The notes beneath the pieces were generated by a model. That model saw nothing but the letters and a program-made list of their open reading frames with translations. It was not told the DNA's origin and made no database searches. This document shows, piece by piece, positions 567-13,122 of a stretch of DNA of 64,000 bases. Numbering within the stretch: the first letter of the stretch is position 1; each line of letters starts with the position of its first letter. This DNA comes from Thermodesulfobacteriota bacterium. GTDB lineage: Bacteria > Desulfobacterota > GWC2-55-46 > JADFVP01. The stretch spans positions 147 through 64,146 of the forward strand of contig JBHHVI010000004.1 in assembly GCA_046754225.1 (NCBI GenBank), written 5' to 3'. The position numbers and the translations under genes were made by a program.

Positions 567-643
567 TACTGACACAAAATCTTTACCGATAATTTTTGTT
601 GTATTCTGTAAAAAAAACCCAAATAAAGGAGGAAGAGAAAGAG

Positions 644-931
644 ATGAAAATCAAACCGCTTCGTGACCGGGTACTCGTCAAGAGGCTTGAAGAGGAAGAG
701 AAGACAAAGGGCGGGATAATCATCCCCGAGAGCGCCAAGGAGGCCCCGGCGGAGGGCAAGGTAGTGGCCGTGGGTCCGGGCAAAAAGGATGACAGCGGCA
801 AGTTGATACCCACAGAGGTAAAGACCGGCGACAGGGTGCTTTTCAGCAAGTACGCCGGAACCGAGGTAAAGATCGAGGGCGTGGAGCATCTTATCATGAA
901 CGAGGACGATATACTCGGGATCGTTGGATAA
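644..931 (+). CDS. groES: co-chaperonin GroES
   Basis: [14 protein letters not shown]...; 96 aa; RBS AAGGAGG at 626-632; the track ORF 596..931 is trimmed to the RBS-supported ATG at 644. Confidence 0.95.
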
Positions 932-993
932 GGGATAACCTTAATTAACGGACGACCTTAATTAACCGGAGAAAAAATATTCAGGAGGATTAA

Positions 994-2655
<1,662 letters not shown>

Positions 2656-2698
2656 TACCGGGTAGACCCTTTAAAGTCTGTCCCGTTAACGCTCAGGA

Positions 2699-2728
2699 GG
2701 GCGGCCCGTTTCTTGGGCCGCCCTTTTT
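2699..2728 (+). terminator. rho-independent terminator after groEL
   Basis: GGGCGGCCC-gtttctt-GGGCCGCCC hairpin followed by TTTTT. Confidence 0.8.
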
Positions 2729-2743
2729 CGTAACCTTAACTCC

Positions 2744-3415
2744 ATGAAAACAGCGATGAAAAGCGCGGACATCCCCGTGGTCATGAGGATACTCAAAAGG
2801 GAGTGTAAAAAGCTCAAGACCCCCTATGTGACGATTGTGGCCGGAGGGGAAAGGAAAGACCCCTTCAGGATCCTCGTCTCCTGCGTCTTGAGCCTGAGGA
2901 CCAAGGACTCTACGACACGCGAGGCCTCGGTGAGGTTATTCAGGCTCGCCGCGAGCCCGGTGGAGCTTGCCGCCCTCAAGACCTCTCAAATCGAGAGGGC
3001 CATCTACCCCGTGGGTTTTTACAGGACCAAGGCCCGCCAATTAAAGGAGATGGGCGCTACGCTCGTTAACCGGTACGGCTCGAATGTCCCCTGTACCATT
3101 GAGGAGCTACTTGAATTGAAGGGTGTGGGGCGTAAGACCGCGAACCTCGTAGTCACCATGGGCTACGCAAAGCCGGGCATATGCGTCGACACCCATGTCC
3201 ACAGGATAACCAACCGCTGGGGTTTCGTAAATACAAAGACACCTGAAAAGACAGAGTCCGCACTCAGAAAAAAACTCGACAAAAGATACTGGATAGCCAT
3301 TAACGACCTCCTCGTGACCTACGGGCAGAATATCTGCAGGCCCCTGTCTCCGCTTTGCAGCCGCTGCGGTATATACAAATACTGCGCCAGGAAAGGCGTA
3401 AAAAAGTGGAGATAA
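2744..3415 (+). CDS. nth: endonuclease III (DNA glycosylase/AP lyase, HhH-GPD with 4Fe-4S cluster)
   Basis: HhH motif LLELKGVGRKTANLV and a C-terminal C-x6-C-x2-C-x5-C cluster (CRPLSPLCSRCGIYKYC). The start could also be the second ATG at 2756. Confidence 0.85.
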   Translation: MKTAMKSADIPVVMRILKRECKKLKTPYVTIVAGGERKDPFRILVSCVLSLRTKDSTTREASVRLFRLAASPVELAALKTSQIERAIYPVGFYRTKARQLKEMGATLVNRYGSNVPCTIEELLELKGVGRKTANLVVTMGYAKPGICVDTHVHRITNRWGFVNTKTPEKTESALRKKLDKRYWIAINDLLVTYGQNICRPLSPLCSRCGIYKYCARKGVKKWR

Positions 3416-3418
3416 CAC

Positions 3419-3447
3419 TTGAGTTTGTGCTTTTCAGAGGGTATTAT
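3419..3447 (+). promoter_or_regulatory. candidate sigma70 promoter for the selenoprotein gene
   Basis: TTGAGT (3419-3424), 17 nt spacer, TATTAT (3442-3447). Confidence 0.35.
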
Positions 3448-3516
3448 TAAGATGAAAATCTTTAAAGGCGCAAAATCTCAAATGCCCTCGGAACTTTTTC
3501 GGGGCGGGAGGCTTTT

Positions 3517-3732
3517 ATGGAAAAAAAGGTTCTCATCTTCGGCAAGGATACCTGACCCTACACGAGCGCGGCCCGTGAGGATTACGCGAAAAAGGGTTAC
3601 GACGTCGAGTACGTGAATGTCAAAAGCTCCGCCGCGAATATGGACAGGATGCTTGATCTCTCCGGCGGAGGACGCGACGTCCCTCTTATCGTCACAGAGG
3701 GGAAGACTACCGTGGGGTTCGGAGGCACGTGA
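3517..3732 (+). CDS. glutaredoxin-like (NrdH/YruB-type) selenoprotein; the in-frame UGA at 3553-3555 is read as selenocysteine
   Basis: RBS GGGAGG at 3505-3510 then ATG at 3517. Translation is MEKKVLIFGKDT-U-PYTSAAREDYAKKGYDVEYVNV...RDVPLIVTEGKTTVGFGG. The TGA sits exactly where the first Cys of the glutaredoxin C-P-Y-C motif would be, and the protein continues in frame with glutaredoxin-like conservation (VP.IV..G...VGF) for 58 more codons to TGA at 3730. Confidence 0.7.
3557..3581 (+). other. SECIS-like hairpin immediately 3' of the in-frame UGA
   Basis: CACG(3561-3564)...CGTG(3574-3577), extended by c3558-g3580 and t3559-g3579, with an apical loop agcgcggcc. It begins 6 nt after the UGA. 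Confidence 0.4.
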
Positions 3733-3851
3733 GGGGTTTAGCCCCGGGCCGGGAGGCTCCCGGCCGTAAATTCCTTGAATATAAAATCAGCGCCTTTAAG
3801 AGGCGGGGCCGGGTTTAAAGACCCTGTCCCGTGACTTATGTGATAGGGCTA

Positions 3852-3880
3852 CGCACCCTGAAAAGGTGCGGCGCTTTTTT
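3852..3880 (+). terminator. rho-independent terminator
   Basis: CGCACC-ctgaaaa-GGTGCG then gcgc TTTTTT. Confidence 0.7.
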
Positions 3881-4019
3881 CGTCTAAATGGCGATTTTTT
3901 GTTTATGGAATACCCGGTTTAAGTGGCGGTCCATCAAAAAACCCCAAAGGACAGCGGCCCGGCTTGCGGCCGGGGAATTAAACTATAAGAGATTAAAAAA
4001 ACCAGGAGGAAGGTATAAG

Positions 4020-4439
4020 GTGGAGAAGACTCTTTCCATAGTCAAACCGGACGGCGTGAAAAAAAATATTATAGGAGAGGTTATTTCGAGGTTCGAGAAG
4101 AAGGGTCTGAAGGTCTCGGCCTTGAAGATGATAAGCCTTACGAAGAAAGAGGCCGAGGGTTTTTACGCCGTGCATAAAGAGAGGCCCTTTTTCTCGTCCC
4201 TTACGGACTTCATGTGTTCGGGCCCTGTGGCGGTGATGGTCCTTTCCGGGGATAACGCCGTCAAGACGGTAAGGAGCGTCATGGGGGCGACAAACCCCGA
4301 GGACGCCGACCCCGGCACCATCAGAAAGGACTTCGCAGACTCCATAGAGTCGAATATCGTCCACGGCTCCGACGGCCCCGACACGGCGGCCTTTGAGATA
4401 GGTTACTTCTTCAACGCCCTTGAGATATTCGAAGGATAA
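4020..4439 (+). CDS. ndk: nucleoside diphosphate kinase
   Basis: [13 protein letters not shown]..., active-site NIVHGSD; GTG start with RBS AGGAGGA 9 nt upstream. The track ORF 3888..4439 is trimmed to this start. Confidence 0.9.
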
Positions 4440-4448
4440 AAGGATAAG

Positions 4449-5333
4449 ATGAACTCCATAGAAAAGATAAAGTCCCATTACAACTTCACCAACGGCGACG
4501 TGGAAAACCTCTTACGCCTCAAGCCCTTTATGGAGAAGCACCGCGGCGACTTCGTGGTGCAGTTCTATAACTATGTAAAGAACTTCGAGGAGGCCCACAG
4601 GTTCTTAAAGGACGAGGCCACCATAAAGAGGCACCAGGATGCCCTGAAGATCTGGTTCACGCAACTCTTTTCGGGAGAGTACGGCCCAAGGTATTTGGAG
4701 GGGCTCGAAAGGGTGGGCATGACCCATGTGAAGATAAACCTGCCCGCCCATTACGTCAACGCTGCCTTCCATTTCGTAAAGGATTACGTATACGAAAAGA
4801 TACAGGGCGAGATCAAAGACCCCTCGGAGCGCTCCTTTGTGCTCCGTTCCGTTTACAAGATAATCGAAATAAACCTCGACGTCTTCACGAGTTCCTACAT
4901 CGCCGAGGAAAAAAAGTTCTTCCTCTCGCAGAGGGTGGAGTCCTACCTCGTACAGGCGGCCAACCGTTTTGTCTACGGCATGAACCTCGTCCTCGTCCTC
5001 GGCCTCGTCGTTATCGGGGTCATGGTCGTGGTGCTCTTTGTCAACGACATGACCCACGTATTTGACGGCGATGTGGAAAAGGGGCTCCTCTCCACCCTTG
5101 GTACGCTCCTTATGCTATGGGTGGTAATCGAGCTTATGGACACGGAGATACGGCACCTGAAGGGCGGCAAATTCGCCATAAAGGTGTTTGTAAGCGTCGC
5201 CCTCGTGGCCATAATAAGAGAGATATTGATTACTTCGCTGAAGGGCGCCGAGGCGATGAACACCCAGCTTACGCTTATCGCGGCCGTGGCCGTGCTCGGA
5301 GGCGTTTACTGGCTCATCTCAAAGGTGGAGTGA
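4449..5333 (+). CDS. globin-coupled sensor (protoglobin-type) N-terminal domain fused to a PsiE-like multi-pass membrane domain
   Basis: The N-terminal ~170 aa match the globin-coupled-sensor globin fold pattern (FYNYV..., RYLEGLERVGMTHVKINLPAHYVNAAFHFV with a proximal His candidate). The C-terminal ~125 aa are hydrophobic and align with E. coli PsiE. Confidence 0.6.
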   Translation: MNSIEKIKSHYNFTNGDVENLLRLKPFMEKHRGDFVVQFYNYVKNFEEAHRFLKDEATIKRHQDALKIWFTQLFSGEYGPRYLEGLERVGMTHVKINLPAHYVNAAFHFVKDYVYEKIQGEIKDPSERSFVLRSVYKIIEINLDVFTSSYIAEEKKFFLSQRVESYLVQAANRFVYGMNLVLVLGLVVIGVMVVVLFVNDMTHVFDGDVEKGLLSTLGTLLMLWVVIELMDTEIRHLKGGKFAIKVFVSVALVAIIREILITSLKGAEAMNTQLTLIAAVAVLGGVYWLISKVE

Positions 5334-5417
5334 ATTTTTTAACTCAAGCGCCCGTCCGCCCCTGTCCGGGGGGCTTGTAATATACTCCGGCCCACGTTTG
5401 AACCGCGTTAAACAGAT

Positions 5418-6431
5418 ATGAAAAATATGAGGGATTTTACATACGAGGACCTTCTGGAAAATGTCTCCTCTCTCGGCGAAAGGCCTTACAGAGCCGCCCA
5501 GCTCTACCGCTGGATATACGGCAAGAGCGCTCCCTCCATAGACGCCATGACGGATATCTCCAGGGCACTGAGGGAAAGGCTGAGGAGAGATTTTTATATC
5601 GGCGGCATTACCGCGGCCGGGGCCCTGGAGGCCGCCGACGGGACCGTTAAGATGGTATTCCGCCTTGACGGAGGCCTTAAGATAGAGTCCGTCATCATCG
5701 CGGAGCCCGACAGGACAACTCTGTGCGTATCAAGCCAGGCGGGATGCGCCCTGGGGTGCGCTTTCTGCATGACCGGCAGAGGGGGGTATAAAAGGGACCT
5801 TAAGCTCTCGGAGCTTACGGGACAGGTCTTTGCGGCGAGGCGGTTTTTGAAGGGCGGCGCCCCGCTTACCAACATAGTGCTTATGGGTATGGGCGAGCCG
5901 CTCATTAATTATGATAATGTAGTCAGGTTCGTTAATATCCTCACCGACGAGCGGGGGTTCGGTTATTCCCACAACAGGGTAACGGTCTCCACGGCCGGGA
6001 TTACGCCCGCAATAAAAAGATTAGGTGAGGATACGTCGGTGAACCTCGCCGTATCCCTTAACGCCCCAACGGATAAGCTGAGGTCGCTCCTTATGCCCGT
6101 GAACAAAAAATACCCGCTTAAGGACCTTATTAAGGCCCTGAAGGAGTACCCCTTGAGGGGCAAAAGGCGTATTACCATAGAGTATGTCCTTTTAAGCGGG
6201 GTGAACGACTCCGACGCCCACGCCCGCTCCCTTAAAAAGGTCTTAAAGGGCGTAAGGTGCAAGATAAACATCATCCCCTTCAACCGCTTTCCCGGCGCCG
6301 CTTTCACGCGCCCCGAAGAGGGCAGGGTGCGGGCCTTCGGGGATATATTGATGCGAGGCGGTTATACCGTCGTTACTCGAAAGAGCAGGGGGGCGGATAT
6401 CGGGGCCGCCTGCGGGCAGCTGAAGGGTTGA
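5418..6431 (+). CDS. rlmN: 23S rRNA (adenine2503-C2)/tRNA methyltransferase RlmN (radical SAM)
   Basis: CVSSQAGCALGCAFC radical SAM motif plus RlmN-specific N-terminal region (RAAQLYRWIY). Confidence 0.9.
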   Translation: MKNMRDFTYEDLLENVSSLGERPYRAAQLYRWIYGKSAPSIDAMTDISRALRERLRRDFYIGGITAAGALEAADGTVKMVFRLDGGLKIESVIIAEPDRTTLCVSSQAGCALGCAFCMTGRGGYKRDLKLSELTGQVFAARRFLKGGAPLTNIVLMGMGEPLINYDNVVRFVNILTDERGFGYSHNRVTVSTAGITPAIKRLGEDTSVNLAVSLNAPTDKLRSLLMPVNKKYPLKDLIKALKEYPLRGKRRITIEYVLLSGVNDSDAHARSLKKVLKGVRCKINIIPFNRFPGAAFTRPEEGRVRAFGDILMRGGYTVVTRKSRGADIGAACGQLKG

Positions 6432-6576
6432 ATGCCCGGCCACGGCGGTGTGGTTTTCCGGCCGGGCAAAAAAAATGTTGAAGGGAAGGGGCGGTAATGT
6501 TAAAAATTATCGCCCGCGGTGATTACCCCCGCGGGCGTTGAAACGGACGTGCCGCAAAAAAAGACTGAAAGGGAAG

Positions 6577-7443
6577 ATGAATATGGAAGAGAGGGTGGTG
6601 GGCGTTATAGGCGGGAGCGGTCTCTATGAGATAGAGGGCCTTACCGACGTAAAGCCGGTTAAGGTTTCAACGCCCTTCGGGGACCCGTCCGACGAGTATA
6701 TCACCGGACGTCTCGGCGGGGTAAAGATGGTCTTTCTTCCCAGGCACGGCCGCGGCCACAGGCTCCTCCCCTCGGAGCTCAATTACAGGGCCAACATATA
6801 CGGCATGAAAAAGCTCGGCGTGGAGTGGATAATATCCGTCTCCGCCGTGGGGAGCATGAGAGAGAAGATTAAACCGGGCCACATTGTATTGGTGGACCAG
6901 TTCTTCGACAGGACTAAAGCAAGGCCCTCCACCTTTTTCGGCTCCGGCGTCGTGGGCCACATAGAGTTCGCCGACCCCGTATGCGGCCATTTAAGCGGTC
7001 TCCTCTACAGCGCCGCGGTGGAGGCGGGCGCAGACGTGCACATGGGCGGCACATACATATGTATAGAAGGGCCGCAGTTCTCAACGAGGGCCGAATCGAA
7101 TATTTACAGGTCCTGGGGTGTGGACGTAATAGGCATGACGAACATCCCCGAGGCGAAACTCGCTCGTGAGGCCGAGATCTGTTATGCCACCGTAGCGCTC
7201 TCTACGGACTATGACTGCTGGCACACGGAAGAGGAGTCCGTTACCGTGGAGATGATACTTGAGACCATAAGAAAAAACGTGGCCATGGCCAGAGAGATAA
7301 TAAAGAAGGCGGCCCCGATGGTCAAGGGCCCGAGGGCGTGCGGTTGCGCCACGGCGATGAAATACGCTACGATAACAGATAAATCGGCGATATCAGAGGA
7401 GACGAAAAAAGACCTTGACCTCCTAATCGGAAAGTATCTCTAA
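6577..7443 (+). CDS. mtnP: S-methyl-5'-thioadenosine phosphorylase
   Basis: MTAP/PNP family (VIGGSGLYEI..., GMTNIPEAKLAREAEICYAT). Start trimmed to the ATG at 6577, which has RBS GGGAAG. Confidence 0.85.
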   Translation: MNMEERVVGVIGGSGLYEIEGLTDVKPVKVSTPFGDPSDEYITGRLGGVKMVFLPRHGRGHRLLPSELNYRANIYGMKKLGVEWIISVSAVGSMREKIKPGHIVLVDQFFDRTKARPSTFFGSGVVGHIEFADPVCGHLSGLLYSAAVEAGADVHMGGTYICIEGPQFSTRAESNIYRSWGVDVIGMTNIPEAKLAREAEICYATVALSTDYDCWHTEEESVTVEMILETIRKNVAMAREIIKKAAPMVKGPRACGCATAMKYATITDKSAISEETKKDLDLLIGKYL

Positions 7444-7488
7444 GGGGAGAGGGCATGAATTTTTTAACAGAATAAGGAGCGCGCTGAG

Positions 7489-8397
7489 ATGAGTATTCTT
7501 GTAGTAGGTTCCGTGGCCTTTGACAGTGTAAAGACGCCTTTCGGCGAGGCGGAAGAGGTGTTAGGGGGGTCGGCGACGTATTTTTCCACTTCGGCCAGTT
7601 ATTTCTCCGGCGTTAAACTTGTCGCCGTCGTGGGCTCGGACTTTCCCGACGAGCATCTCGGTAATCTTAAGAAGCGCGGCATAGATATCTCGGGGATAAA
7701 GAAGGTCCCGGGCAAGACATTCAGATGGAAGGGTTACTATGATTACGACCTGAACCAGGCCCATACCCTCGACACACAGTTGAACGTCTTCAGCGATTTC
7801 GACCCCAGCATACCCGACGCCATGGCGGAATCAAAATACCTTTTTCTGGCAAACATAGACCCCGAGCTCCAGTTGAAGGTCCTGGAGCAGGTAAAAAACC
7901 CCAGGCTCATAGCCTGTGACACCATGAACTTCTGGATAGAGGGTAAGCCCGAAGTGCTAAAAAAACTCCTTAAACGCGTGGAGCTCTTCGTTATAAACGA
8001 GGGTGAGGCGAGGGAGTTTTCGGGAGAGGCGAGCCTCGTCAGGGCGGCGAAAAAGATACTGGCCCTCGGCCCGAAGACCCTCATAGTAAAGAGGGGAGAG
8101 TACGGGGCCCTCATGTTCAACGGCTCTTCCGTCTTTTCGGCCCCGGCCTATCCCCTTGAGGAGATATTCGACCCCACCGGCGCCGGGGACAGCTTTGCCG
8201 GCGGGCTTATGGGGTATCTCGCCAATACCGGCGACTTAAGCGATGATAATATGAGAAGGGCCATAATATTCGGCAGCGTCATGGCTTCGTTTAACGTCGA
8301 GGCCTTCAGCATGGGAAGGCTCGGCGACCTCACCAACGAAGAGATACGCGCCCGATATAACGAATTTAAGCGGTTGACCCACTTCGAGGAACTGTGA
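7489..8397 (+). CDS. PfkB-family carbohydrate/nucleoside kinase
   Basis: Ribokinase-like fold with a GAGD motif near the C-terminus (DPTGAGDSFAGG); RBS AAGGAG. Confidence 0.75.
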   Translation: MSILVVGSVAFDSVKTPFGEAEEVLGGSATYFSTSASYFSGVKLVAVVGSDFPDEHLGNLKKRGIDISGIKKVPGKTFRWKGYYDYDLNQAHTLDTQLNVFSDFDPSIPDAMAESKYLFLANIDPELQLKVLEQVKNPRLIACDTMNFWIEGKPEVLKKLLKRVELFVINEGEAREFSGEASLVRAAKKILALGPKTLIVKRGEYGALMFNGSSVFSAPAYPLEEIFDPTGAGDSFAGGLMGYLANTGDLSDDNMRRAIIFGSVMASFNVEAFSMGRLGDLTNEEIRARYNEFKRLTHFEEL

Positions 8398-8483
8398 TAA
8401 TTTGTTCATGATATCAAGGCTAAAGCCCGGCGCATTAAGGCGTAGAGGACAAATTTTTCAGAAGCTCTTGAACGAACCTTGCC

Positions 8484-9278
8484 ATGACCCTGTCTCTCAA
8501 TAAAAGTTTTCCCGCCGCTTTGCGGACGCTGTCCTTTAAGGGGGTCTTATGCCTCGCCGTGGCCGTATTTTTCTTTACAGCCTGCGCGCACCGCCAGGAA
8601 AAGAGAAAAAAGGGCGCGCACACCCATTACAGGCTCGGCGTTGTGTACTATAAGGACGGCAGGATAGCCGAGGCCCTTAAAGAACTCAATATCGCCGTTG
8701 ATATGCACCCTAAAGAGCCTTCCTATCATGTGGCGCTGGGGCTGGCGTACCTCGCGCGCGGCTTTAACAACGAAGCGAAAAAGCATCTCGGGGACGCAAT
8801 AAAACTCAAGCCTGAATTTTCCGAGGCCCGTGTAAACCTCGCCGCCGTATACCTGAAGGAAGGGGACTGGGACGGCGCCATCGCCGAGTGCATGAAGGCG
8901 TTAAAGAACCTCTATTACAAGACCCCGGAGGCGGCATACCTCAACATTGGTTGGGCCTACCATAACAAAGGTATGTACAGTGCCGCCCTTGAAAATCTCA
9001 AGAAGTCCGTGGAGCTTAACCCGCGGGTTCCGTTGGCGTATTATAATACCGGCCTTACGTTAGAGAAGATGAACAAGGCCAAAAAGGCCGTCAAGGCCTA
9101 CGACGATGCGATAAAGCTCAAGCCCCGCTATATGGAGGCGTATTACAGAAAGGGCGTCGCCCTCGTCAAGGTCAAGGACAGGCCCGGCGCGCTTCGTGCC
9201 TTTAAAAAGGTAATAGAGATCGCCCCCGGGAGCGAAAAGGCGGCGTCTGCGAGAGATTATATCGAACTTATAAAATAA
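8484..9278 (+). CDS. TPR-repeat lipoprotein (PilF/PilW- or BamD-like)
   Basis: Signal peptide with a lipobox-like FFFTAC and multiple TPR repeats (AYLNIGWAYHNKGMYSAALENLKKSVELNP...). Confidence 0.7.
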   Translation: MTLSLNKSFPAALRTLSFKGVLCLAVAVFFFTACAHRQEKRKKGAHTHYRLGVVYYKDGRIAEALKELNIAVDMHPKEPSYHVALGLAYLARGFNNEAKKHLGDAIKLKPEFSEARVNLAAVYLKEGDWDGAIAECMKALKNLYYKTPEAAYLNIGWAYHNKGMYSAALENLKKSVELNPRVPLAYYNTGLTLEKMNKAKKAVKAYDDAIKLKPRYMEAYYRKGVALVKVKDRPGALRAFKKVIEIAPGSEKAASARDYIELIK

Positions 9279-9471
9279 TCCGGTTTTCGAATTGGGGCAT
9301 CTTCCTTTTATTGCTGAAACCTTTCACGCCTGCCAGTTAGATGGACGCCTGCTTATCGGCGGTCTTTCCCCGCGGAGAGGCCCTGAGCCCCCTTATTTGA
9401 AGACGACTACTTTACCGGGGGATTCACCTTCTTATTTTTACGGCGAAATAAGACCCCCTTGGTTGTGAGAT

Positions 9472-10284
9472 ATGGAAAGTCCAGGGTCCTACATCAGGAG
9501 GGAGAGGGAACACAGGGGTATCTCTCTCACGGCTGTGCATGAGGCCACACGTGTGCCTTTAAACAATCTCAAGGCCCTCGAGGAAGACAGGTTCGGCGAT
9601 TTGCCGCACCGGGCGTTTATAAAGGGTTATTTAAAGGCCGTTTGCAAGTACCTCGGACTTGATGAGACGGATACGCTTCTGCGTTACGAGATGTTTTTGA
9701 GGGAGACTTCTCTACGGGTGGTGCCGGCCGGCGAGGATGAACTGCCCGGCAAACCGTCCCCGGTCTCGATAAATTCAAAAAACATTGTCTCAGCCCTGGT
9801 CGTCTTCGGTGTGGTGATAATAATAGCGTTTTATTTTGTATTTTCCATGAAAACCACCGTCGAGACCGTCCCGGGCGACAGCGCCGCCCCGGCACCGGAG
9901 GCGCCAAGCCTGGAAAGGTTGGAAAAGGTAGAAGAGGCGCCTTCCGGGGATGCGGACCTCATCCCCGCCGGCGCGGAAAAAACAAATGAGGTCAAAGGCG
10001 AGACCGGCGGCGGCGAACACGTCCTGAGCATAACCGCCAGCGAGGATGTGTGGATACAGACGGCCCTTGACGGAGGAGAACCCTTTGAGGTACTGCTTAA
10101 AGAGGGCGAGAGTGTGGAGTGGAAGGCGAAGGATAATTTTTCGCTCGTCATAGGAAATGCCGCCGGAGTAAGCCTCACCATGGACGGATGGGAGTTTCCC
10201 CGGCTCGGTGAGCGCGGCAAGGTCGTCAGGCTGAGCCTGCCGCCGGCCGGCGCCGTCGATAAAGACGCCGGCCCCGTTGAGTGA
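9472..10284 (+). CDS. rodZ: cytoskeleton protein RodZ (HTH, TM segment, DUF4115)
   Basis: N-terminal XRE-type HTH, one TM helix (ALVVFGVVIIIAFYFVF), Pro/Ala-rich linker and a C-terminal DUF4115-like domain (VWIQTALDGGEPFEVLLKEGES...LSLPP). Confidence 0.8.
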   Translation: MESPGSYIRREREHRGISLTAVHEATRVPLNNLKALEEDRFGDLPHRAFIKGYLKAVCKYLGLDETDTLLRYEMFLRETSLRVVPAGEDELPGKPSPVSINSKNIVSALVVFGVVIIIAFYFVFSMKTTVETVPGDSAAPAPEAPSLERLEKVEEAPSGDADLIPAGAEKTNEVKGETGGGEHVLSITASEDVWIQTALDGGEPFEVLLKEGESVEWKAKDNFSLVIGNAAGVSLTMDGWEFPRLGERGKVVRLSLPPAGAVDKDAGPVE

Positions 10285-10378: not shown

Positions 10379-11092
10379 ATGGAGTCCATAATCAGATGTA
10401 GAAAATGCGGAAAGAAGATGCGCTCGGTGCGCGTTGACGACTTCAAGATAAAGTCATATTGTTCATGCGGCTATCTCGAATACCAGACGGCCACCGCGGC
10501 GAGTAAGACCATAAACCCGCACCTTTCGAAACAGAACCTCATGCCCCTTATATTCGACGAGGACGGAAGGTTCCTTTTTCAGGCGGATATCGCGGACAGG
10601 GAACGTAAGGAGATAATCACCCTTGAGGAGGTAAGTATGCTCGCCTCCTCGGATTATGACCTCGATGACGTTTTGAAGACCGTCGCCGAAAAGACAGCCA
10701 ACAGGCTCGGCGTGGATATCTGCTCCATATACCTCTGGGACGGCACGCACCTTGTCTTGAGGGGTACTTACGGTCTCGCGCAGGATGCCGTGGGCAAGGC
10801 GAAGCTGAAAAAAGGCGAAGGTATTACAGGCTCCGCTCTTGAGGCCCGTACGCCGCTTTTGATAGAGGACGTCTCCGGGGACGAGCGCTACCACTTTTTC
10901 CCGGAAACACGGGAGGAGCAGTACAGGATCAAGACCATGTACTCCTATCCCATCTATTCCGGCGACGTACCCTTCGGGGCCCTCAATGTACAGACGGTGG
11001 TGACAAAGGAATTCACTGAAGACGAACTCCGCTTCGTGGGCGTCGTGGCCAATCTCATCCTCGGCGCCGTAAAGATGAGGAAGAGGGGCTGA
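10379..11092 (+). CDS. GAF-domain protein with N-terminal zinc ribbon
   Basis: CRKCGKK...CSCGY zinc-ribbon motif followed by a GAF-like domain (DLDDVLKTVAEKTANRLGVDICSIYLWDG...GEGITG). Confidence 0.65.
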   Translation: MESIIRCRKCGKKMRSVRVDDFKIKSYCSCGYLEYQTATAASKTINPHLSKQNLMPLIFDEDGRFLFQADIADRERKEIITLEEVSMLASSDYDLDDVLKTVAEKTANRLGVDICSIYLWDGTHLVLRGTYGLAQDAVGKAKLKKGEGITGSALEARTPLLIEDVSGDERYHFFPETREEQYRIKTMYSYPIYSGDVPFGALNVQTVVTKEFTEDELRFVGVVANLILGAVKMRKRG

Positions 11093-12726: not shown

Positions 12727-12817
12727 GGAGAGATGCCCGAGAGGCTGAAGGGGGCTGACTCGAAATCAGTTGTTCCGCTTTGCGGAACCGGGGGTTCAAA
12801 TCCCTCTCTCTCCGCCA
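12727..12817 (+). tRNA. tRNA-Ser (anticodon CGA)
   Basis: Cloverleaf with acceptor GGAGAGA/TCTCTCC, anticodon loop ctCGAaa, long variable arm (class II), T-loop TTCAAAT, 3' CCA encoded. Confidence 0.9.
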
Positions 12818-12879
12818 GATTTTTTCCGGCGCCCGAGGTGTCTCCGGAGTAAATGGACTTTAAGAAAGGTTTTTTGACT

Positions 12880-12970
12880 GGAGAGATGCCCGAGCGGCCG
12901 AAGGGGCACGACTGGAAATCGTGTGTACATTTATCGTGTACCGAGGGTTCGAATCCCTCTCTCTCCGCCA
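12880..12970 (+). tRNA. tRNA-Ser (anticodon GGA)
   Basis: Same acceptor and T arm as the upstream tRNA, anticodon loop ctGGAaa, long variable arm, CCA encoded. Confidence 0.9.
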
Positions 12971-12988
12971 GTTTGAGTTTAACTCGCG

Positions 12989-13122
12989 TTTACGGACGCC
13001 GCTGATAGCCGGGTCTTGCGCAATGGGAAAGTCTCAAACCCCGCCAGGTCCGGAAGGAAGCAACGGTAGCGGCTTAAACCCATGTGCCGCAAGGGTGCCT
13101 GGCTATCAGCGGCGTCCGTAAA
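12989..13122 (+). ncRNA. ffs: SRP RNA (4.5S RNA)
   Basis: Conserved domain IV motif CCAGGUCCGGAAGGAAGCAAC. The 22-nt 5' arm tttacggacgccgctgatagcc is perfectly complementary to the 3' arm ggctatcagcggcgtccgtaaa. Classic position upstream of dnaX. Ends are approximate. Confidence 0.9.

Follow-up and report, generated by a model that had tools for sequence, protein, structure and literature searches.

The gene under study lies at positions 4449 to 5333 on the forward strand of the window, by which we mean the whole 64,000-nucleotide stretch of DNA that was analysed, and is located between a nucleoside diphosphate kinase gene and a radical-SAM methyltransferase gene. The motif RYLEGLERVGMTHVKINLPAHYVNAAFHFV, quoted as a globin signature in a previous sequence-only reading of this DNA, corresponds to residues 81-110 of its 294-residue open reading frame. 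The genes and features of the locus were assigned as follows.

4020..4439, forward strand: ndk (nucleoside diphosphate kinase), upstream gene, with a likely GTG start at 4020 and a length of 139 aa

4440..4444, forward strand: Shine-Dalgarno-like AAGGA, within the 9-nt gap that separates the ndk stop codon (4437-4439) from the ATG

4449..5333, forward strand: complete gene of the globin-PsiE membrane protein (almost certainly of the GsGCS class), an open reading frame of 294 aa with an ATG start and both Pfam domains

4455..4913, forward strand: sensor-globin (Protoglobin, S-family) domain, aa 3-155, predicted to be cytoplasmic (PF11563, phmmer, AlphaFold2 and Foldseek)

4563..4568, forward strand: codons of Phe39-Tyr40, the B9/B10 Phe-Tyr motif typical of globin-coupled sensors (alignment)

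4632..4634, forward strand: codon of His62, distal position E7 (gap-free alignment to 2W31, identical numbering)

4725..4727, forward strand: codon of His93, candidate proximal heme ligand F8 (alignment with the F-helix His of globin-coupled sensor structures)

4899..4964, forward strand: helical linker, aa 151-172, from globin helix H to TM1 (continuous helix in the AlphaFold2 model)

4983..5324, forward strand: PsiE-family four-helix transmembrane (TM) module, aa 179-292, predicted N-in/C-in (PF06146, AlphaFold2 and charge distribution)

5130..5132, forward strand: codon of Glu228, an acidic residue within TM2, kept in every fusion cluster

5217..5219, forward strand: codon of Arg257, an Arg within TM3 and a hallmark of the PsiE-type module (conservation)

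5418..6431, forward strand: rlmN (radical-SAM rRNA/tRNA methyltransferase), downstream gene (Pfam RlmN_N and Radical_SAM, synteny)

The Pfam NDK domain covers residues 46-179 of the long ndk open reading frame; the GTG codon at 4020 is preceded by AGGAGG, and the homologues are 139 aa long. Since the short gap between ndk and the globin-PsiE gene contains AAGGA and no terminator-like hairpin was found between the two genes, they are likely co-transcribed. No paralogue of the globin-PsiE gene was found elsewhere in the window.

The domain composition of the protein was defined by a Pfam search. Protoglobin PF11563 matched residues 3-155 with an E value of 3.5e-31 and 108.8 bits, covering profile positions 4-157 of 158 and scoring far above the gathering score of 25. 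PsiE PF06146 matched residues 179-292 with an E value of 1.3e-20 and 74.2 bits (profile positions 7-119 of 122; gathering score 23.9), and a Kyte-Doolittle scan of the sequence returned four hydrophobic runs at residues 170-206, 209-231, 237-266 and 272-294. These are exactly the two families named by the sequence-only reading, which had proposed an N-terminal sensor globin fused to a PsiE-like domain of four hydrophobic segments, and both parts of that proposal were confirmed. Because the NCBIfam PsiE equivalog models NF002763/4/7 scored 10-16 bits against cut-offs of 138-222, the C-terminal half is classed, from its sequence, as a PsiE-family domain and not as an orthologue of enterobacterial PsiE. 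The TM2-TM3 loop carries four Lys/Arg residues and the TM1-TM2 loop four Asp/Glu residues, a charge distribution that fits the positive-inside rule for the predicted N-in/C-in topology with a cytoplasmic globin.

A full-length AlphaFold2 model was calculated from an alignment of 60 homologues. The globin part showed pLDDT values of 80-93 and the 3-on-3 sensor-globin fold of the solved globin domains of globin-coupled sensors, the TM part reaching values of 53-80 only. An unbroken helix spanning residues 125-205 comprises globin helix H, the linker and TM1 and is followed by three more TM helices, so that the model also predicts the four-helix membrane topology expected from the earlier reading. 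A Foldseek search of the PDB with the full-length model returned globins only. The top match was 2w31_A, with a target-normalised TM-score of 0.94, an rmsd of 1.5 A and 37% identity, followed by AfGcHK and HemAT with TM-scores of 0.87-0.92 and by BpeGReg, DosC and protoglobin. Chain A of 2W31 was also the best sequence relative among solved structures (phmmer E=3e-33), ahead of weaker matches to AfGcHK, a Thermosynechococcus globin, DosC and HemAT; its alignment is gap-free over residues 3-150, and the residue numbers therefore coincide with those of GsGCS. The proximal histidine, for which a candidate had been indicated from the sequence, corresponds to His93, which aligns with the F-helix His in the conserved xHV(R/K)I motif of 2W31, 5OHE and 8H17.

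The TM module was also modelled separately (residues 158-294) from a more diverse alignment of 49 sequences, resulting in four helices with a pLDDT of 88.6 and a pTM of 0.69. No structural analogue of the module was found in the PDB, where the best Foldseek match had an E value of 0.21 and consisted, like the others, of generic helical bundles. With no match under this value, a voltage-sensor-like, MurJ-like or channel-like homology of the TM module is unsupported; the MurJ template employed in the 2021 study of GsGCS was topological only (PMC8076648).

The globin domain of GsGCS (UniProt Q747F6, WP_010943923) was crystallised in 2009 (PDB 2W31), and the full-length protein of 300 aa was purified and studied by Hammerschmid et al. 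in 2021, with Pfam assigning a globin to residues 2-156 and PsiE to residues 218-285 (PMC8076648). The same organisation was reported in 168 UniProt proteins, all bacterial and all of the S-family, in which TM helices 2 and 3 are highly conserved and an Arg is conserved in helix 3 (PMC8076648). GsGCS oligomerises through its TM domain, the tetramer being favoured by native MS and 15-A cryo-EM; its midpoint potential was measured as -37 mV vs SHE, and it autoxidised at 1.88 per hour (PMC8076648). In the low-resolution model of the tetramer the globins barely touch each other and the hemes point outward, an arrangement that, according to the authors, argues against classical intramolecular signal transduction (PMC8076648). 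They considered redox sensing or electron/proton transfer at the membrane to be as likely as O2 sensing and regarded the PsiE domain chiefly as an oligomerisation or localisation device, H+ transport being "conceivable" (PMC8076648). According to the introduction of that paper, all characterised S-family globins that possess a C-terminal domain act as sensors (PMC8076648). The searched literature held no later work on GsGCS.

On these grounds the window protein is almost certainly a membrane-integral globin-coupled sensor of the GsGCS class, belonging to a His-E7 subtype. It joins an N-terminal S-family globin and a C-terminal PsiE domain with four TM helices in one 294-aa open reading frame, and it shares with GsGCS the helical linker, the overall length of about 300 aa, the proximal His, Trp69 and the Phe-Tyr motif at B9/B10 described for globin-coupled sensors (PMC8076648). 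The two proteins differ in that their identity is only 37% in the Foldseek alignment, a sequence comparison that covers the globin domain, and in that the host of the window protein is a Thermodesulfobacteriota MAG.

With regard to the individual domains, the C-terminal 114 residues match the PF06146 model (E. coli PsiE, "DUF373") nearly end to end and show the four TM helices of the PsiE family together with the TM3 Arg that occurs throughout it, the difference being that the module of the window protein is fused to a globin. The N-terminal domain has the same sensor-globin fold as HemAT-Bs, AfGcHK, EcDosC and BpeGReg (target-normalised Foldseek TM-scores of 0.77-0.92), and the order of globin, helical connector and C-terminal module is common to all these proteins. 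However, the outputs of the latter are MCP signalling, histidine kinase or diguanylate cyclase modules and their globins form dimers, whereas the C-terminal module of the window protein is an integral membrane bundle and GsGCS oligomerises via its TM domain rather than its globin. A further related fold is the N-terminal domain of RsbR (Pfam Rsbr_N), a sensor of globin fold without heme, which is echoed by those relatives of the window protein that have no proximal His; the window protein itself differs in keeping the proximal His and the heme-pocket residues. The module coupled to this domain in RsbR, a protein of the stressosome, is a STAS domain instead of a membrane domain.

A database search returned 477 homologues. 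The best 120 of these are all colinear, about 294 aa long and 63-100% identical to the window protein, and contain both Pfam domains. The NCBI entry for the identical sequence (P0001, 100%), which stems from a Thermodesulfobacteriota MAG, bears the name "protoglobin domain-containing protein", and the labels of the relatives include Deltaproteobacteria, Thermodesulfobacteriota, Nitrospiraceae and Candidatus Methylomirabilis. A scan with query-specific patterns, which covers close relatives, detected the same gene in five GTDB species genomes. The chance that the fusion is an artefact of misassembly, frameshift or read-through of two genes is negligible, as these best 120 of 477 homologues are colinear single open reading frames from many independent assemblies, the gene recurs in the five GTDB species genomes, and full-length GsGCS has been purified as a protein (PMC8076648). 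The globin-PsiE architecture is thus already published and common, and the window adds one more member to it; the sequence-only reading, which had considered the fusion unusual, has to be corrected on this point. Its further remark that the architecture has no known output mechanism still holds, since no function of PsiE was found in the searched literature and the membrane module has no analogue in the PDB.

The heme pocket was then compared with that of GsGCS. Across the 60 aligned sequences of the close subfamily, Phe39, Tyr40, His62, Trp69, His93 and His101 do not vary, and the conservation of Leu66 is 90% or higher. The distal combination of His-E7 with Tyr-B10 is found in ligand-stabilising globins. 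In GsGCS the sixth heme ligand is His(66)E11 (PMC8076648), whereas the window protein carries Leu66 at E11 and has a histidine at E7 instead, His62, one helical turn earlier, and therefore lacks the bis-His F8/E11 arrangement. Because alternation of His and Leu at E7 has been described within the globin-PsiE class (PMC8076648), this is a subtype difference and not an exclusion from the class. As the position of the putative sixth ligand differs, the window protein may depart from GsGCS in heme coordination, redox potential and ligand affinity.

The distribution of these residues was evaluated in a diverse set of 36 fusion clusters, with representatives at 50% identity. The distal site is of the His-E7 type in 13 clusters, of the His-E11 type, as in GsGCS, in six and of the Arg-E7 type in five; Tyr occupies B10 in 23 of the 36, and the proximal His is kept in 29. 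The window protein thus belongs to the largest distal-site subtype (His-E7, 13/36), and GsGCS, the only characterised member, to a smaller one (6/36). The proximal His is truly absent in at least five of the 36 clusters (P0175, P0187, P0189, P0198 and P0199), all of which retain the PsiE module; four of these five still exceed the Protoglobin gathering threshold. A further cluster, P0182, has no aligned proximal His and is perhaps just misaligned. In addition, two relatives match Rsbr_N, the non-heme sensor globin, and carry a PsiE-type module.

The conservation maximum of the whole protein was located in the membrane module, in the stretch formed by TM2, the following loop and TM3. In the close set, the major-residue frequency was 0.94 in TM2, 0.89 in the TM2-TM3 loop and 0.88 in TM3 as compared with 0.73 in the globin core; in the 36 diverse clusters the corresponding values were 0.63, 0.58 and 0.63 versus 0.43. 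The linker reached 0.86 in the close subfamily, above the globin core, and 0.40 in the diverse set, where it is not especially conserved. Glu228 is shared by 36 of 36 fusion clusters and does not vary in the close-subfamily alignment; a few distant stand-alone relatives have Ser instead. Arg257 occurs in all 35 fusion clusters having that position and in all 49 sequences of the diverse TM-module alignment, stand-alone PsiE-like proteins included. An Asp or Glu is found at position 200 in 33 of the 36 fusion clusters, and conserved glycines (G177, G185, G190, G218 and G284) are distributed over TM1, TM2 and TM4.

An exhaustive search with the TM domain as query returned 134 representative clusters, some of them fusions of about 300 aa and others stand-alone proteins of 130-200 aa; in a word-indexed search the same query yielded only 24 proteins, for the most part family fragments. 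One of the stand-alone relatives, P0141 (49% identity), is encoded by a genuine gene of its own that is not preceded by a globin gene. The 53 longer clusters bearing the TM module comprised 39 with Protoglobin, two with Rsbr_N, one with Metallophos and one with NifU_N; no fusion to PAS, GAF or CBS-type domains was found among them. Judged from these sequences, the variety of fused domains would not clearly mark the TM module as a generic output module.

We also compared the gene neighbourhood with that of the relatives. The order ndk, globin-PsiE gene, rlmN was found at four of the five GTDB genome loci and at further metagenome loci. The usual array consists of nth, a hypothetical gene (214-248 aa), ndk, the globin-PsiE gene, rlmN, mtaP, pfkB and a TPR gene; the hypothetical gene between nth and ndk is absent in the window, and the array runs on to rodZ in the window and at loci L001, L002 and L005. 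Since ndk, rlmN and rodZ are adjacent in E. coli K-12 with no globin gene among them, the neighbourhood is an old housekeeping array into which the globin-PsiE gene was inserted, and it gives no pointer to function. For the same reason a functional link to ndk or rlmN is unsupported. At the loci of the Nitrospiraceae type, the globin-PsiE gene follows genes of a 2-oxoacid:ferredoxin oxidoreductase (POR), with genes for a SpoU methylase and a PAS histidine kinase in facing orientation. No conserved dedicated partner gene was found across the compared GTDB, metagenome and Nitrospiraceae-type loci.

The reading we favour, to which we give an even chance, is that the protein is a self-contained heme-based redox or gas sensor having its membrane module as the output, where heme binding, the signalling direction and the kind of output are all inferred. 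The cytoplasmic globin would bind heme b through the proximal His93 (F8), with Tyr40 (B10) and His62 (E7) on the distal side, His62 possibly acting as sixth ligand in a hexacoordinated heme. A change at the heme iron, either an Fe(II)/Fe(III) switch or the binding of O2, NO or CO with displacement of the distal His, would shift the E and H helices, and the rigid helix formed by globin helix H, the linker and TM1 would pass this movement on to TM1. The core made up of TM2, the loop and TM3 would then repack around Glu228 and Arg257, and the membrane module would respond either with proton or ion conduction or through an effect on a membrane partner. By analogy with GsGCS, the membrane bundle would also drive oligomerisation, probably into a tetramer.

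Several lines of evidence support this sensor-effector reading. We argue that the PsiE module may be more than a passive anchor and may act as an effector, because the conservation maximum lies within it, because charged residues inside its TM helices are conserved, and because it occurs both alone and behind globins that have no proximal His. The persistence of the module in the at least five of 36 clusters without a proximal His, together with the two relatives matching RsbR_N, is likewise evidence that the N-terminal domain may be a modular regulator rather than an obligate electron carrier. The unbroken helix of residues 125-205 and the sensor role of the characterised S-family globins with a C-terminal domain (PMC8076648) were counted in favour of coupling between globin and membrane, and the lack of a conserved partner gene fits a self-contained sensor-effector. 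On the other hand, the searched literature reports an output activity for no PsiE-family protein, the poor Foldseek scores of the TM module leave it with no channel or enzyme precedent, and the TM helices of the full-length model have modest pLDDT values, with a linker that does not stand out by its conservation in the diverse set. Moreover, the barely touching globins and outward-facing hemes of GsGCS speak, in the view of its authors, against classical signalling through the protein, and its midpoint potential and fast autoxidation would suit electron donation equally well (PMC8076648). An effector role, if shown experimentally, would represent a new type of output for heme sensors and provide a function for the orphan PsiE family, and the comparative results on the conservation of TM2-loop-TM3, on Glu228 and Arg257 and on the persistence of the module sharpen the question of what role the PsiE module plays.

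The main rival of the sensor-effector reading is a membrane-tethered redox globin, the alternative favoured for GsGCS by Hammerschmid et al. (PMC8076648), which would exchange electrons, possibly with protons, with respiratory components of the membrane, the PsiE domain serving for localisation and oligomerisation. The redox data of GsGCS and the loose coupling of its outward-facing globins in the low-resolution model agree with such a role (PMC8076648), for which the distal His62 could also supply hexacoordination, and the gene lies directly 3' of the 2-oxoacid:ferredoxin oxidoreductase genes in the Nitrospiraceae-type loci. However, its usual context (ndk, rlmN, mtaP, pfkB and rodZ) is housekeeping and not respiratory, neither the highest conservation within the protein nor a conserved intramembrane Glu and Arg is expected of a passive anchor, and at least five of the 36 clusters keep the module without the proximal His and hence without a canonical heme electron path. 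We consider electron transfer less likely than the sensor-effector reading. The adjacency to pyruvate/2-oxoacid:ferredoxin oxidoreductase genes in one lineage would also suit a membrane-localised detoxifying globin, acting as NO dioxygenase, NO reductase or peroxidase-like enzyme to protect O2- or NO-sensitive enzymes of the membrane or cytoplasm in an anaerobe, as would the Thermodesulfobacteriota label of the host lineage and the presence of the His-E7 and Tyr-B10 distal pair. This role is very improbable because turnover would require a reductase, and no reductase domain is fused to the protein or encoded next to it at the compared loci; in addition, the globin belongs to the sensor lineage by both sequence and fold, and the architecture is unchanged in variants without the proximal His.

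A specific sub-case of the sensor-effector reading is a heme-gated H+ or ion pathway, in which an oligomeric bundle of the PsiE type would conduct through or alongside the core containing Glu228 and Arg257, with the globin opening or closing this path according to redox state or gas binding. The oligomerisation of GsGCS through its TM domain, with the tetramer favoured, and the statement of its authors that H+ transport is "conceivable" are consistent with this possibility (PMC8076648), as are the conserved charged residues within TM2 and TM3 and the conserved glycines, which suggest tight packing of TM1, TM2 and TM4; moreover, no partner gene would be needed. In this form the proposal is nevertheless improbable, as the Foldseek search of the PDB revealed no known channel or transporter that resembles the module in structure, flux is reported for no PsiE protein in the searched literature, and the pair of Glu228 and Arg257 could be a mere structural salt bridge, the former being exchanged for Ser in some distant stand-alone relatives. 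If true, such a heme-gated channel would convert a cytoplasmic redox or gas signal into a change of membrane permeability or potential with neither second messenger nor partner protein, and would be the first function assigned to the widespread orphan PsiE/DUF373 family.

The globin-PsiE gene of the window lies within an array of housekeeping genes, whose ndk-rlmN-rodZ core is likewise adjacent in E. coli K-12. This array and the features that follow it are listed below.

Window 596-10284, housekeeping array: groES-groEL, nth, ndk, the globin-PsiE gene (4449-5333, forward strand), rlmN, an mtaP-like phosphorylase gene, a pfkB-family kinase gene, a TPR protein gene and rodZ
Window 10379-11092, gene for a GAF-domain protein of 237 aa, downstream of rodZ
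Window 12727-13107, a pair of genes for tRNA-Ser, one with anticodon CGA and one with GGA, and immediately after them a small bacterial SRP RNA (RF00169, 68.6 bits)

The mechanical ORF call for ndk (window 3888-4439) started at the ATG at 3888 and returned a protein of 183 aa, in which the Pfam NDK domain begins at residue 46; the ndk homologues are 139 aa long. A GTG codon at 4020 is preceded by the motif AGGAGG and, judging from these sequence features, is likely the true ndk start in place of the ATG at 3888. From nth to this likely start, about 600 bp (window 3416-4019) were found to be free of coding sequence. In related loci the same interval holds a hypothetical gene of 214-248 aa, whose product has a lipoprotein-like N-terminus; a tblastn search of the window returned no trace of this gene. 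Comparison of the interval with Rfam gave no family match, the top hit being a miRNA model with 20 bits and an E value of 0.26.

Among the relatives of the window protein, five globin-PsiE clusters (P0175, P0187, P0189, P0198 and P0199) carry Phe, Cys, Ile, Gln or Met in place of the proximal, heme-ligating His, and four of them still score above the Pfam Protoglobin threshold. A match to Rsbr_N, the Pfam non-heme sensor globin, also occurs in two relatives. The fusions devoid of the proximal His are candidate non-heme globin-fold sensors mounted on the same PsiE-type membrane module.

In two Nitrospiraceae-type loci (L008, 1383-4888, and L003, 2383-5888, in their own coordinates), the globin-PsiE gene immediately follows, at a distance of 56 nt and in the same orientation, the two genes for the subunits of a 2-oxoacid:ferredoxin oxidoreductase, of which the first matches Pfam POR/POR_N and the second TPP_enzyme_C/PFO_beta_C. 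A gene encoding a hybrid PAS histidine kinase occurs further downstream in convergent orientation. This arrangement could reflect a lineage-specific functional link of globin-PsiE to an oxygen-sensitive enzyme.

A stand-alone PsiE-like protein, P0141 (gene at 3001-3501 of locus L013), is 49% identical to the membrane module of the window protein and retains a linker-like N-terminal helix. No globin gene occurs upstream of its gene, which is flanked by a divergent VapB antitoxin gene.

Finally, the 237-aa protein encoded downstream of rodZ shows a Cys-rich, zinc-ribbon-like N-terminus (CxxC ... CxC) followed by the GAF domain, and is a small stand-alone GAF sensor.
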